From Eledone cirrhosa (lineage: Eukaryota), in assembly GCA_964016885.1 (NCBI GenBank), contig OZ024766.1, positions 13,950,001 through 14,014,000 of the forward strand: DNA of 64,000 bases, given 5' to 3'. Shown here in pieces: positions 5,193-39,600 of the stretch; the first letter of the stretch is position 1; every line of letters begins with the position of its first letter. The notes below the pieces were generated by a model. The model ran no database searches, was not told where the DNA came from, and worked only from the letters and a program-made list of their open reading frames with translations. The position numbers were made by a program, and so were the translations under genes.

Positions 5193-5489
5193 TGAAGACA
5201 AACATAGAATATTCGAAAATATTCTGTATGTTTATAATAAACATTTTGAAGACCTAATCGCTATAGAATAGAATACGTCACGTATTACAATTTGAGATTC
5301 TCGATAAAAGCAAGGGAAGTAACCTACGCGTTTCATTCTTATTAGAAATCATCAGGATTACATATCCCTTGCTTTTATCGAGAATCTCAAATTGTAATAC
5401 GTGACGTATTCTATTCTATAGCGATTAGGTCTTCAAAATGTTTATTATAAACATACAGAATATTTTCGAATATTCTATGTTTGTCTTCA
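5193..5489. mobile_element. Foldback insert with 125-bp inverted arms; probable ultra-truncated Penelope-like insertion
   Basis: Arms 5193-5317 and 5365-5489 are reverse complements; the loop holds a hammerhead motif; flanked by (TA)n; absent from triplication copies 2 and 3. Confidence 0.8.
5319..5361 (-). ncRNA. Minimal type I hammerhead ribozyme motif
   Basis: Minus strand reads gtaatc CTGATGA tttctaataagaat GAAA cgcg TA ggttac: 6-bp stem I, intact core, stem II ttct/agaa, palindromic stem III acgcgt, GUA cleavage triplet. Confidence 0.8.
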
Positions 5490-5622
5490 CATATATATCG
5501 CTATTTCAGAGCATTAAATCCAAATATATATTTATATATATATATATATATATATATATATATATAATTATATTTATATATATATATATATATATATATA
5601 ATTATATTTATATATATATATA

Positions 5623-8212
5623 GGAAACAGAGGCCAACCTGGAGAAGAAAGATCTGGAAGCTGAAAGTCCCCTCAACCAGTAACAGATTTAAAGATATTT
5701 TACTCAACGCCTACGACAGTAAAGAAGAACAGATACAGACATTTAACGTAGAAGAGAACTGGAAGTTCCTAAAAAATAACTTACTAGAGGCGACGGATGA
5801 GGTTTGTGGCTGGAGTAAGACCTCAAGCAGGAGGAGAGTGACTTGGTGGTGGAACAATAAGGTAGATGAAGCAGTCAAGGCCAAGAGACAGGCATGGAAA
5901 GAATGGAAGAACGGGGGGAGCAGGGTACATTACATAGAGACCAAGAGGGAAGCTAGGCGACAAGTATACTTAGCTAGGAGGGAAGCAGAGGATAGAAAAT
6001 TCAAGCATGTTTTACAACGTGAGGACCAGAAACAGGAGGTATTCAAGATTGCGAGGCAGTGTGTCAGAGATAGTTGTGATGTCATTGGAGAGAAGTGTAT
6101 CCGGAATGATAAAGGTGAGCTTGCCCTCACAAGTGCTGAGAAGAAAGATGCATGGAAGAGTCATTATGATAGATTACTAAATGAGGAGAATGCATGGGAA
6201 GAAGAGACCCTACCCCATGTAGACCCTATAGAGTGACCAGCAGTACAAGTCAGCGGCAGCGTAGTAAGTAAGGCTATCAGAGATATGAAGATGGGGAAGG
6301 CAACCGGTCCATCGGGTATAGCTGCCGAGATGCTGAAGGCATCTGGGTCTGTAGGTCACACTATAACCACACGTATCGTTAACCAGGTAATACTAGAAGG
6401 GGCCATACCAAAAGATTGGTGCAGTAGCATCATTGTCAACTGCTACAAAGGTAAAGGCGATGCACTAGATAGAGGAAACTATAGAGGTATAAAGTTGATG
6501 GACCAGGTCATGAAAGTAACAGAAAGAGTTATAGCACAGCTGATTAGGGACCGGGTGAATATAGACGAGATGCAATTTGGGTTTGTACCAGGGAGAGGCA
6601 CCACTGATGCCCTCTTCCTTGTGAGGCAATTACAGGAAAAGTACCTAGCTAAAAGTAAGCCACTCTACTTGGCATTTGTCGACCTTGAGAAAGCCTTTGA
6701 CAGAGTTCCACGTGCGGTAATCTGGTGGGCTCTTAGAAAACTAGGAGTAGATGAATGGCTTGTGAAAGCGGTACAACCCATGTATAGGGGAGCAGTCAGC
6801 AAAGTTAGGATTAGCAATGAGTATAGCGAGGAATTTAGCGTACAGGTTGGGGTCCACCAGGGCTCTGTTCTTAGCCCTCTCCTGTTCATCATAGTCCTGC
6901 AGGCAATAACGGAGGAGTTTAAGACCGGATGCCCATGGGAACTCCTGTATGCTGATGACCTCGCACTCATAGCTGAATCTATGGTAGAACTAGAGAATAA
7001 ATTCCAAACCTGGAAGCAGGGACTAGAGAGAAAGGGCCTCAAAGTCAACATGACAAAGACTAAGGTCCTTGTAAGTAGACGAGAAAACAGAACCCAGATC
7101 CCCTCAGGGAAATGGCCTTGCTCAGTATGTAGGAAAGGTGTAGGTAGGAACTCCATTCTCTGCCCCAAATGCAAACAATGGGTACACAAGAGATGTAGCG
7201 GGATCTCAGGAAGCTTAATTAAGAATGTAGGATTCACATGCAGCAGCTGTGCTGAAACAGCAAGCAAACAGCCACAGGAAACAAGTACCACCAATCTCTG
7301 GGAGGGCCCTGTAGAAACAGTAGACAGCTTCTGCTACCTAGGTGACCGAATTAGCAACGGAGGTGGGTGCTCAGAAAGTACAATAACTAGGGTAAGAACG
7401 GGATGGAAGAAGTTTAGGGAACTACTACCACTGCTAGCTGCAAAAGGCTTCTCCCTCAGAATGAAAGGCAGACTGTATGATGCGTGTATCCGAACAGCGA
7501 TGTTGCATGGTAGTGAGACCTGGGCGCTGAAGGTGGAAGACTTACGTAGATTAGAGAGAAACGAAGCCTGCATGCTCCGATGGATGTGTAACGGTAATAT
7601 ACGTGAACGACAAAGCATAAAGGAATTGAGAGAGAGACTGAGCATAAGAGGAATCAAATGCTGCGTGCAGGAGAGGCGGTTACGCTGGTATGGACATGTG
7701 ATGTGTATGAAGGATGACAGCTGCATAAAAAGGTGCAGAGCACTAGAAGTTGATGGAAACCGCGGAGTGGGGAGACCCAAGATGACTTGGGATGAGGTGA
7801 TAAAAGCCGACCTTACCCAACTACACCTCTCAAAGACAATGACACACGACCGTGACTTCTGGCGTCACGCAGTAATACAGGGTACCCGACCTCCCATGGG
7901 TACATGCTGAAGCATATAAACAATATGCCCCCACTCCCCCCACCGCAAGGTGGTCGTGGAGGTGCCACGGCAAAAAAGCACCCAGCCCACACTGTAAAGT
8001 GGACGTGTAGGCGCCACGAAAAAGCACCCAGCACTCACTGTAAATGAGGTTGGTGTTAGGAAGGGCATCCAGCTGTAGAAATGAAGCCAGATAAGTTCCT
8101 GTATGAGCAAGGCATGGTCAGCCGACCAGACACTGCCCACAACAGGACAACCCGTCTAACCCATGCTAGCGTGGAAGAACGGACGTAAAACGGTGATGAT
8201 GATGATGATGAT
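5623..8212 (+). mobile_element. 5'-truncated RTE-clade LINE (reverse transcriptase plus PHD-like finger) with one in-frame stop
   Basis: ORFs 5838-6236 and 6285-7910 share a frame separated by TGA; RT motifs QFGF.PGRGTTDA, FVDLEKAFDRV, GVHQGSVLSPLLF, LLYADD; C-terminal RRLRWYGHV and GRPK.TW; (GAT)n tail; endonuclease absent. Confidence 0.95.
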
Positions 8213-36586: not shown

Positions 36587-36653
36587 TTTTATCTGATGAA
36601 AACACAAATATTATTGCATGATGATGTTTGTTTTTGAAATGCGCATAATAAAA
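36587..36653 (+). ncRNA. Type I hammerhead ribozyme motif in a foldback insert
   Basis: ttttat CTGATGA [16-bp stem II with one mismatch, loop gcat] GAAA tgcgca TA ataaaa: perfect 6-bp stem I, palindromic stem III atgcgcat, predicted cleavage after 36647. Confidence 0.82.
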
Positions 36654-39600
36654 TACATGGAACTCCTTTAACCATCTTTTGATCTTATATTATATATACA
36701 TATATATATATTTATATTTATATTTCTGGCTATTTCTGGCTGTCGATGGTCCTATTCAGGCCACTGGGATGACGTTGTTCAACGAGTGTATTTTTAAAAA
36801 AATGCAACAAGTGGTTCAAATCATTCGCAGATTTGCATTTGCTGTGTAAACGCAGATGGTTATTTTTCCTCTCATTTGGTGAACATCCAAGAATTTAACT
36901 GCTGTGATTTACGGATTAATAGGTGAAATATATTTCTTACTTAAAGAGCCAGGAACCCAACGGCTGAGCTCCGGCCAGAGATCAGCAGTTGGGGTCCTGA
37001 CTCTTTTCCTATACATACATATATATATATATATATATATATTTATATAACGAAGGAAATGTGGTAAGGAACCAGGTGGACCATAACGCACCAAAGTACT
37101 CAATACTTGAGGTAGTAGAGTGGGTAATAGGAACCTTATTATATATTTATATATATATATATATAAATAATATATTAATAAATGGAAACTATATTTATAA
37201 AACCATATTTATTTTATTATACATATTTCAAGGGCAACCAAGGCAAACTGTTGAGTGCTTTATATCAGTTATAAAAATGTTTAAGCTTATTGAATCCCAA
37301 CAAATTAAATATAACCTCTGCATATATATATATTTATATATATATATATAAATATATATAATACAACATTAGAATTACTACTACATTTTACTTTCTATCT
37401 CTGTCTCTCACATCTCTTTCTCTCCCTCTATCTCCCTCTCTCGATATCCCTCTCTTTCTCTCACCCCCCTCTCTCTCTCTATCTCTCTCTATCTCTCCTC
37501 CTGTCTCTCCCATACACTTACCTAAGGTCATGTAATTTAACTGGGTGTGACTTTCTCAAAAGTTAATACAAAGACTTGCTTTCAACTGACAGAAACATAG
37601 CTACGATGTTGCACACTCATATCATGTGTCTGTATGGCTGACTGCCTGAACTTCATACAGAAATAAAAAACCCCACACAACCAACATTCTGGGGTTGATA
37701 AAATATAATTGTTTCTAATTATATTGACTAATTATATTTATTAATAATATTGAGTAATAATATTGACTAATTATATTGACTAATTATATTTACGAATAAT
37801 ATTGACTAATAATATTGACTAATTATATTGACTAATTATATTTACTAATAATATTGACTAATAATATTGACTAATTATATTGACTAATTATATTGACTAA
37901 TTATATTGACTAATAATATTGACTAATTATATTTACTAATAATATTGACTAATAATATTGACTTATTATATTGACTAATTATATTGACTAATTATATTGA
38001 CTAATTATATTGACTAATTATATTTACTAATAATATTGACTAATTATATTTACTAATAATATTGACTAATAATATTGACTAATTATATTGACTAATTATA
38101 TTGACTAATTATATTGACTAATTATATTGACTAATTATATTGACTAATTATATTTACTAATAATATTGACTAATTATATTTACTAATAATATTGACTAAT
38201 TATATTGACTAATTATATTGACTAATTATATTGACTAATTATATTTACTAATAATATTGACTAATAATATTGACTAATTATATTGACTAATTATATTTAC
38301 TAATTATATTGACTAATTATATTGACTAATTATATTGACTAATTATATTGACTAATTATATTTACTAATAATAGTAACTAATTATATGAACTAATAATTA
38401 TTTCTACATTAGCCACAAGGCCAGCAATTACCCAGTACATTACTGGTACTTTATTTTATCGACCCCGTAAGGATGAAAGGCAAAGTTAACCTCATTAACT
38501 AATTATATTGACTAATAATATTAACTAATTATATTGACTAATTATATTAACTAATAATATTAACTAATATTATCACCTAATAATATTAACTAATAACATT
38601 CACTAATTATATTAACTAATAATATTAACTAATATTATCAACTAATAATATTCACTAATAATTTAAATAATTTTTACATTAGGCACAAGGCCAGCAATTA
38701 CCCCAGTGTATTACTGGTACTTTATTTTATCAACCCCGTAAGGATGAAAGGCAAAGTTAACCTCGGCGGGATTTGAATTAGTTAATATTATTCGGTGGAT
38801 TGTCAGTATTGGTGGAGCGTCGGACGCCATGCTTTGATGCATAGAGTTATATAATTAGTAAATATTATTAGTTAATATTATTAGTTAATATTATTTAGTT
38901 AATATAATTAGTAAATATTATTAGTTAATATTATTAGTTAATATTATTTAGTTAATATTATTAGTTAATATTATTAGTCAATATAATTAGTTAATATTAT
39001 TAGTTAATATAATTAGTTAATATTATTAGTTAATATTATTAGTCAATAATAATATTAATGGCAGTGGATTGGCAGTATCAGTGGAGGGTCGGACGCCATG
39101 CTTTGATGCATAGAGTTACGGCCCTTGCCATTCTGAGTTCAAATCCCACCGAGGTTAACTTTGCCTTTCATCCTTACGGGGTCGATAAAATAAAGTAGCA
39201 GTAATTCACTGGGGTAATTGCTGGCCTTGTGCCTAACGTAGAAACAATTATTAACTAATATTTCTAACTAATAATATTGATTGTTGACTAGAAATTTAGA
39301 GATTATTTTAATGGTTTCTGATTTAGATGCAAGGCCAACACATTTGGGGAAGGCATGTTGATTGACCCCAGTGTGTTACTGGTACTTTATTTTATCAACC
39401 CAGTTAGGATGAAAGGCAAAGCTTACCTTGATGGAATTTGAACTCAGAACGTAAAGGGCCGTAACTGGGTTCAAATCCTACTGAAATTATAGCTCTGGCT
39501 TTCATCCTAACAGGGTTGATAAAGTAAAGTACCAGTAACGTACTGGGGTTGATAAAGTAAAGTACCTGTAACGTTCTTGGGTTGATAAAGAAAGGTACCA

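Follow-up and report, generated by a model that had tools for sequence, protein, structure and literature searches.

In a 64,000-nucleotide stretch of the Eledone cirrhosa genome (NCBI GenBank assembly GCA_964016885.1, contig OZ024766.1, positions 13,950,001 to 14,014,000 of the forward strand; hereafter the window, numbered from its first letter), four foldback inserts near 5193, 29027, 30895, and 36385 (E5, E29, E31, and E36) accompany a coding copy of a Penelope-like element (PLE; 15929-17768). The foldbacks are most likely 5′-truncated PLE insertions, that is, ordinary PLE debris. We consider it probable that both nicks in a (TA)n target prime a cDNA on the sense RNA of the element, one just 5′ of a first stem-loop, at the inner element end (site B; 16068/17768 in the coding copy), and one just 5′ of a second stem-loop, at the outer end of the tail (site A), and that the two cDNAs are joined head to head by microhomology. 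Binding, priming, and joining we infer from sequence correlations. The layout itself is already known, being the published signature of PLEs (PMC8557442, PMC3846280, PMC11167929); the candidate twin stem-loop is the novelty added here.

Results

Each of the five inserts consists of two inverted arms, 58-265 bp long and 97-100% complementary, that enclose a loop of 4-94 nt (1.6 kb in the coding copy), and of an extension on one side only, the tail; TA tracts flank all five on both sides (Table 1). In the coding copy, the arms are 16068-16125 and 17711-17768 (56/58 identical). A first-pass annotation had described this architecture for the foldbacks, had seen the same layout in the coding copy, and had taken the inserts to be unrelated in sequence. 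The arm coordinates and flanks bear it out for all five, the coding copy indeed runs from tail through inverted 3′ end and body to 3′ end, and no two inserts share blastn similarity at an E-value of 0.01. The combination of a one-sided tail and an inverted pseudo-long terminal repeat (pLTR) is present in four of four foldbacks. Two pairs of short words had also been singled out. The words ggagtgta (16062) and ggagtata (36469) are there; read as their reverse complements, they represent the TA run together with the 5′ strand of the conserved stem-loop described below. The word gctatttca is likewise present (5500 and 29602), but as a common signal we reject it as chance: it falls at different places of the motif, and in 1500 shuffles some pair among the five tails shared a 9-mer in 28% (the E5/E29 pair alone in 1.7%). 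No host exon was identified around the inserts.

The window is made up of tandem segmental duplications, which supply paralogous control sites. E5 is missing at both of its paralogous sites (12290 and 19747) and the coding copy at both of its own (10927 and 23347), while E36 is present in four of six tandem copies (the others at 51562, 56751, and 61676) and missing at 42184 and 47071. Where the TA tract is interrupted, at E5 and E36, the two ends of the insert carry the same 12-bp word (5182-5193/5524-5535 and 36378-36389/36693-36704); from these apparent target duplications it follows that arms and extension arrived together. At E29, E31, and the coding copy, the flanks are near-pure TA, and a duplication is unreadable. 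The earlier proposal of PLE-type integration into (TA)n is supported.

These observations bear on two further explanations. Palindromes beside (TA)n are hard to sequence, and no record in the runs examined spans the coding copy's own junction (16122-16123), as might be expected if the foldbacks were chimeric-read or assembly artefacts. We regard this as scarcely credible: three inserts have empty paralogous sites and two show 12-bp target duplications, which makes an artefact unlikely, and in addition the arms carry mismatches or indels, the four tandem copies of E36 differ by 1-2 bases, and the same layout occurs in two independent assemblies (L037 and L030, below).

Miniature inverted-repeat transposable elements (MITEs) and foldback DNA transposons typically have long inverted repeats at their ends and insert at TA. 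Some or all of the inserts could on that ground, and in the case of E29 and E31 also for want of a hammerhead, be taken for non-autonomous elements of this kind that target TA, with the extension as mere flanking DNA. This is very improbable, since relatives of the inserts in the window are not foldbacks (a single arm at 8701 and a mini-insert at 8354), the extension is missing from the empty sites and lies inside the target duplication though outside one arm, and the PLE tail is family sequence in three organisms. Neither copying as a unit nor terminal inverted repeats at the ends, as expected of such transposons, was found.

Several local features adjoin these inserts. The E36 repeats are part of a segmental array (31968-64000) of ~5-kb units, which comprise 13-bp and 33-bp minisatellites and unique DNA and are ~1% diverged. 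Two copies of the array are without both E36 and the stub at 37043, and unit distances (0-20 differences per ~1630 nt; row u1 duplicates u2) do not polarise insertion versus loss. The TA flanks of E31 (30530-31522) partly mirror each other, being interrupted mainly by CTG to the left of the insert and mainly by CAG to its right. On the right side of the TA tract of E5 lies a LINE (5568-7910) with a PHD-like finger that encodes a reverse transcriptase (RT; Pfam RVT_1, E 2e-32); short 3′ fragments of its family occur at paralogous sites and at 30217-30530.

The coding copy encodes a linker zinc finger and a GIY-YIG domain (16113-17100), followed by a 3′ UTR and a hammerhead (17601-17712, predicted cut after 17708). 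A C-terminal GIY-YIG domain, as in endonuclease-positive (EN+) PLEs, is thus predicted. Pfam scores the domain at 18.4 bits (E 0.003), under its cut-off of 22.6, and the YIG and CCHH residues are conserved among 2861 relatives. According to PMC8557442 (here and below, statements on the literature draw on parts of the cited sources), a CX2-5CxxC-type zinc finger in the linker before the endonuclease marks the Neptune and Nematis clades. The corresponding CNC...CPL...CL motif is present in the window protein and its relatives and supports a Neptune/Nematis type for this copy. The rest of the protein matches a 759-aa relative (E 8e-16), the copy itself being 5′-truncated; no RT domain was found by Pfam in the long relatives, and a homology search among longer proteins gave a score for none of 54 candidates. 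Our use of the name Neptune for this family is an assumption based on the zinc-finger motif and the hammerhead.

We examined copies of this family in four sequencing runs from three organisms, including X13 (reads) and X2 (contigs). The family is multicopy in the four runs, and a 4-nt insertion that breaks the reading frame near 16706 is missing from the family copies in all of them. A (TA)n tract follows site B in 119 X13 reads and 13 X2 contigs, and eight X13 reads go from the tail-side arm copy into the hammerhead region. Because the tail is covered in all four runs, we consider it native element sequence and reject 3′-transduced host DNA as its source. Read pile-ups in X13 (e.g., 15963, 16022, 16114, 17658, and 17725) lie at or beside AATT words; they were taken as library cut sites and not used.

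The signal proposed for the two ends comes from the leaders of 80 related loci (L numbers; metagenome contigs), the best 80 of 527 fetched with a 12-protein subclade alignment; a pattern scan of viral contigs gave 18 matches, none of them related. A type-I hammerhead was found in 62 of the 80 loci. Downstream of it, GCTCY-N-GAGCACT and an AU-rich stretch recur. In the leader, the hammerhead is thus followed by an AU run, the stem-loop GCUCY...UNGAGCACU, another copy of this stem-loop at a distance of 54-83 nt, and the ATG. The strict stem-loop lies within 220 nt at 43 of 64 hammerhead sites with at least 100 nt downstream, against 21 matches in 441 kb elsewhere, and occurs twice at 19 of 53 sites with at least 200 nt downstream; as the pattern was read off the same loci, these counts are descriptive. 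Under a slightly looser pattern, 21 sites had the stem-loop twice, at a spacing of 54-83 nt, with an ATG following the second by 7-46 nt; at 11 of these sites, an ORF of 702-717 aa opens. The predicted fold has a lower stem of 4 bp, a 2-nt 3′ bulge starting with U (53/53), and a variable upper stem that covaries (first pair C-G in 29 and U-A in 22, n = 53; score 0.317 versus 0.140 shuffled); in this 2-nt-bulge fold, 26 of 53 form at least 3 bp, against a null maximum of 8. Stem-loops occur in 25 of 45 clusters at 70% protein identity (median pairwise identity, 50%), and in 24 of 36 cases an AU run of at least 4 nt stands before stem-loop 1. In the two leaders tested (L043 and L024), the stem-loop has no match in Rfam, and no description of a twin stem-loop or of PLE twin priming was found in the literature searched, with older PLE papers, Repbase reports, and some supplements beyond its reach.

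The ends of (TA)n-terminated copies fall close to these stem-loops. Measured from the predicted cut, stem-loop 1 begins at 36-73 nt and stem-loop 2 at 98-134 nt; of 15 TA tracts that follow a hammerhead, 11 start 31-57 nt past the cut, three at 113-116, and one at 75. Seven stopped copies end 2-13 nt before a stem-loop of their closest read-through sibling. Locus L037 is a complete copy with tail, inverted arm, body, and TA tract; its tail stops 4 nt short of the position of stem-loop 2 in L043 and L039, and because this tail matches the native leader of the same two loci, 3′-transduced host DNA is rejected here as well. Locus L030 is a foldback with a tail in a TA tract, and the stem-loop lies in the tail. 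Since (TA)n-ended copies stop 2-13 nt before one of the two stem-loops, tail length would be given by their spacing.

Some of the related loci show other geometries. L080:1085-1389 is a tail-to-tail palindrome centered on stem-loop 1, with hammerheads on both strands, unlike the window inserts, and L003:136-506 and L005:1074-1302 each hold two different hammerheads in series with TA tracts between, which suggests PLEs nested into each other's TA ends.

Back in the window, we used a stem-loop model built solely from loci of other organisms (R1; its E-values are rough). In 42 kb it ranked the E36 tail first, followed by a stub at 37043 and a stem-loop at 24466 (Table 1). E36, the coding copy, and the 37043 stub have ACTC/GAGT instead of GCTC/GAGC, a compensatory change; in the coding copy, a 56-nt insert separates the stems. 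In all five, the end of the tail-less arm falls on an alternating TA run, 5-8 nt long, which lies inside the tail-bearing arm. This is the only such run of that arm in four of the five; by position, 4.8-8.1% would be expected to qualify.

The stub relatives show the same fixed ends. The 77-bp mini-insert at 8354-8430 has paralogs at 13142 and 20597. The single-arm relative at 8701-8911, with paralogs at 13574 and 21103, begins within ~15 nt of the E31 apex. The 37043-37147 stub is missing from the tandem copies at 42502 and 47389. In the leader remnant at 24328-24573, the stem-loop lies 53 nt past the cut of a hammerhead that scores 9.5 bits with the hammerhead model below, which is not significant. 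As a separate observation, the outer end of the 37043 stub has an 83% relative at 35942-36007, which is oppositely oriented and occurs in all six tandem copies.

That some inserts carry ribozyme motifs, as the first reading of the sequence had it, agrees with candidate hammerhead cores in E5, E36, and the coding copy. A descriptor placed type-I cores at 5355 (-), 17605 (+), 36593 (+), and 25022 (-), that is, four in 21 kb of window versus none in each of 200 null sequences. A model built from 54 hammerheads of other organisms (R2) gave E 3e-6 for the core at 25022, also found E5 and E36 (Table 1), and missed the long-stem hammerhead of the coding copy. Neither descriptor nor R2 found a core in E29 or E31. 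The E5 hammerhead scores 22.6 bits against Rfam HH9, under the gathering score of 52, and that of E36 matches no Rfam hammerhead; in an Rfam search of window 1-37500, the matches listed (150 of 157) are all miRNA-type and under gathering scores. Between the segments with hammerheads at 25022 (-) and 24564 (-) lies another foldback (24574-24899; 150-bp arms, 143/150), which is without a TA flank. The 63 bp at its apex are found again, with 98-100% identity, at 35492-35554 and in the five other tandem copies, in a SINE-like repeat with an apparent 8-bp duplication.

Polarity and junctions limit how the two arms can have been joined. In all four inserts with readable polarity (E5, E36, the coding copy, and L037), the loop or body shares the polarity of the tail-less arm. 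Because the loop or body continues that arm, we infer that fold-back of a single sense-primed cDNA is excluded, as it would place the tail on the opposite arm or leave the tail without a template. The head-to-head junction of E5 passes through stem I of its hammerhead (predicted cut after 5325), and a contig of X2 has the same layout, in that its inverted arm extends exactly to the first base past the predicted cut and overlaps the 5′ strand of stem I by 4 nt. The idea that the apex is always the hammerhead cut site was nevertheless rejected, as only four of ~13 junctions lie within 11 nt of it and the E36 arm overshoots it by 11 nt; with four of ~13, the ribozyme is a frequent seam, not a rule. 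Equal arms and the lack of a core in E29 and E31 would fit two cDNAs that each reached the end of the cut RNA.

An antisense transcript could instead prime itself, its 3′ end folding on a palindrome and being extended into a head-to-head repeat, as published for rotifer Penelope elements (PMC3846280). Such self-priming likewise places the tail on the inverted arm, and junction palindromes exist here, GATC in E31 and the hammerhead stems in E5 and E36. It would, however, require a separate and precise trimming at site B, and it leaves unexplained the primer-like TA runs at B (5/5), the ends fixed just 5′ of two sense-strand stem-loops, and joins without overlap (8354-8430; the X2 joint 16024-17617), whereas two-strand priming on sense RNA has been demonstrated in vitro for Poseidon (PMC11167929). 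We judge it improbable. The fold-back priming put forward in the first-pass annotation is not favored: the 8354-8430 join has no overlap, and both ends of the inserts lie at fixed distances from the same sense-strand stem-loop.

Table 1. Positions of the inserts and their relatives in the window (PLE, coding copy; R1 and R2, stem-loop and hammerhead models)
Positions	Strand	Feature	Evidence
5193..5317	-	Tail-less arm of E5; stops at site B against TA tract	125/125 complementary to 5365-5489
5318..5364	-	Loop of E5 (47 nt), putative minimal type-I hammerhead, core 5355-5325, palindromic CGCG stem III	R2 16.2 bits, E 0.015
5365..5489	+	Tail-bearing arm of E5; exact match begins 8 nt past predicted cut	Arm comparison
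5490..5523	+	Tail of E5, 34 nt: ATATATAT run at site B, then degenerate stem-loop-like word 5500-5512	
8354..8430	.	Mini-insert of E29 family, in which inverted tail end (site A) and arm end (site B) meet head to head without overlap	79-85% identity to E29
8701..8911	+	Single-arm, tail-less relative of E31, ending at site B	83% identity
15929..16067	-	Tail of PLE, 139 nt; long-loop stem-loop ACTC...TAGAGT at 16066-16003	Covered in all four runs
16068..16122	-	Inverted copy of PLE 3′ end, reaching 6 nt past predicted cut	CGT microhomology with body
16123..17768	+	5′-truncated Neptune/Nematis-type PLE body, ending at site B	
24328..24573	-	Another leader remnant of PLE type, with degenerate hammerhead (24564-24512), AU run, stem-loop (24466), tail, and TA tract	R1 15.6 bits, E 0.058
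29031..29568	.	Foldback E29, arms 29031-29295 and 29304-29568, loop 8 nt, no hammerhead core	263/265 identical
29569..29653	+	Tail of E29, 85 nt: TATAT at site B, then stem-loop GCTC-N16-GAGC at 29580-29603	Fold
30897..31278	.	Foldback E31, arms 30897-31081 and 31086-31278, apex at GATC palindrome, no hammerhead	185/185 aligned plus one 8-bp indel
31279..31318	+	Tail of E31, 40 nt: ATATATA at site B; no Neptune stem-loop	
36390..36471	-	Tail of E36, 82 nt; stem-loop ACTC-CAGT...ACTG-TA-GAGT at 36473-36449	Top R1 match in 42 kb, 20 bits, E 0.003
36472..36538	-	Tail-bearing arm of E36; extends 11 nt upstream of predicted cut, into stem III	65/67 identical to 36633-36699
36539..36699	+	Loop (94 nt) and tail-less arm of E36; putative hammerhead core 36593-36647, palindromic TGCGCA	R2 13.4 bits, E 0.12
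37043..37147	-	Solo-tail insert (105 bp) between TA tracts, stem-loop at 37121	R1 16.1 bits, E 0.04

Discussion

Under the proposal that we prefer, each nicked strand of the (TA)n tract would prime a cDNA on the element RNA at a separate site set by a stem-loop. The RT, perhaps as a dimer, would bind each stem-loop and start just 5′ of it, and at the inner site B the (TA)n primer would pair with the short AU run, helping the start. The cDNA from B would become the loop or body, and that from the outer site A the tail and inverted arm, usually the shorter of the two. At their 3′ ends, the two would be linked by microhomology, in some cases across stem I or III of the hammerhead. Two cDNAs of similar length would produce a foldback tailed on one side only, and a long cDNA from B would produce the layout at 15929. 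Very short cDNAs would leave stubs like those at 8354-8430 and 37043-37147, which are probably dead ends.

A number of observations weigh against this proposal. The 80 loci are a selected sample, and 21 of the 64 hammerhead sites are without the strict stem-loop, many since the copy stops in TA before it. The training set shows no covariation in the lower stem, which is invariant by selection. At site A the AU run is weak (at least 4 nt in 8 of 17). Most head-to-head junctions lie away from the predicted cut, among them L037 (-72), L030 (~-50), and three more joints in X2 and X13, and so do the ORF-internal inversions in L032, L040, L058, L074, and L078. Within the window, R1 finds none of the tails of E29, the coding copy, E5, and E31; the relaxed descriptor that matches the tail of the coding copy was written after that tail was seen, the E29 stem-loop is a by-eye fold that the strict descriptor misses, and E31 has neither hammerhead nor stem-loop. 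The putative stem-loops thus speak weakly for E29 and E5. The arms of E5, E29, E31, and E36 match none of the 80 related loci, and no coding sequence ties these four to a PLE. Finally, hammerhead mutants left Poseidon insertion in vitro unchanged (PMC11167929). The earlier claim that one mechanism made all of the inserts is supported for at least E36 and the coding copy, and probably for E29 and E5; it is not shown for E31, because that insert is without hammerhead and stem-loop.

The inserts might also be PLE stubs in which the stem-loops do another job, in translation, as promoter, or in DNA recognition by the endonuclease, with the starts set only by AU microhomology. The stem-loops do sit in the 5′ leader just before the ATG, the Penelope tail has been reported as necessary for DNA recognition by the endonuclease (as cited in PMC11167929), and the AU runs before stem-loop 1 counted above would serve such starts. 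Additional TA runs inside the E29 arm are, however, unused as ends, ends at site A can have a TA match of just 2-3 nt (L037 and L027), and the one-sided 2-nt bulge and the excess of G-U over A-C pairs (11 versus 4) point to a folded sense RNA. We consider this explanation unlikely, though less so than the others; the rival explanations partly overlap one another.

Both nicks of an L1 target can prime cDNA, and the joining of the two products by microhomology, known as twin priming, gives a 5′ inversion. The proposal here likewise has two nick-primed cDNAs joined by microhomology. The second primer of L1 binds upstream, at an internal site whose position varies, so that nothing is duplicated, whereas here both sites would be fixed near the 3′ end, and the overlapping copies form an inverted repeat with a tail.

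A standard PLE insertion has been described as an inverted 5′-truncated copy with a 30-40 bp tail at one end (PMC8557442), and rotifer Penelopes have a tail on one inverted pLTR, duplications of 8-10 bp, and junction palindromes (PMC3846280). EN+ PLE units thus resemble the window inserts in their head-to-head inverted 5′-truncated copy, tail on one pLTR, short target duplication (8-10 bp, versus ~12 here), junction palindromes, and microsatellite targets. They differ in tail length (30-40 bp, versus 34-139 nt here), and most of the window inserts are leader sequence only; the parts of PMC8557442 and PMC3846280 drawn on here name no sequence signal for the two ends. In vitro, the Poseidon protein of Anolis (PAc) nicks both strands and extends them, starting at two positions of the RNA that delimit the tail (PMC11167929), and, as proposed here, there is a hammerhead upstream and a predicted dimer. 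The start sites of PAc fall within a single AC-rich stem-loop of the ORF and share no homology with the target. Those proposed here would instead be located in the 5′ leader, where one stem-loop is present in two copies and each site precedes a different copy, and the inner one has TA microhomology to (TA)n.

Minimal type-I hammerheads have been reported in PLE pLTRs, some in opposite-strand pairs (PMC4209133). Like those seen here, they have a short stem I and a palindromic stem III, are mostly solitary, occur in truncated PLEs, and can form opposite-strand pairs 100-700 bp apart; the coincidence of hammerhead stems with the head-to-head junction in four of ~13 cases is not discussed in the part of that source covered here. 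Non-LTR retrozymes, which are PLE derivatives (bioRxiv 10.64898/2026.07.22.740005; PMC7229834), are also non-coding and carry type-I hammerheads. They form head-to-tail tandem arrays with a hammerhead per unit, whereas the window inserts are single head-to-head units, two of them without a hammerhead, and we rejected membership in this group. Naiad elements have an N-terminal endonuclease (PMC8557442). E31 agrees with Naiads in lacking a canonical hammerhead, in its (TA)n target, and in a tail of 30-40 bp, and it has no coding part; cephalopod Naiads are old remnants, unlike E31 with its nearly identical arms (PMC8557442).

More tentatively, and with somewhat less than even confidence, we suggest that Neptune elements at large carry a deeply conserved, undescribed pair of RNA stem-loops (RCUCY...RUNGAGYACU) between hammerhead and start codon, each loading one RT of a dimer, with the AU run serving for a telomerase-like alignment of the (TA)n primer and stem I as a possible cDNA seam. 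If true, the PLE tail, the inverted pLTR, and microsatellite targeting would all be accounted for by a single RNA code, which would also predict tail length from stem-loop spacing. The origin of PLE tails, inverted repeats, and microsatellite bias has been named an open mechanistic question (PMC8557442), and a two-copy RNA signal just past both element ends would give exact mutations for the existing Poseidon in vitro system (PMC11167929). PLE RTs are the sister group of telomerase. The stem-loop motif would be useful for annotating non-coding PLE stubs overlooked by repeat libraries, and the foldbacks, if transcribed, would form long duplexes from either strand.

Other features of the window

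Inverted arms of 71 bp with a loop of 34 nt are found at 1297-1473, without TA flanks. Older inverted repeats (70-83%) lie at 10218-10561, 15121-15492, and 22590-22977; they are mutual paralogs, and their arms flank a central (CA)(TA)(TG) tract.

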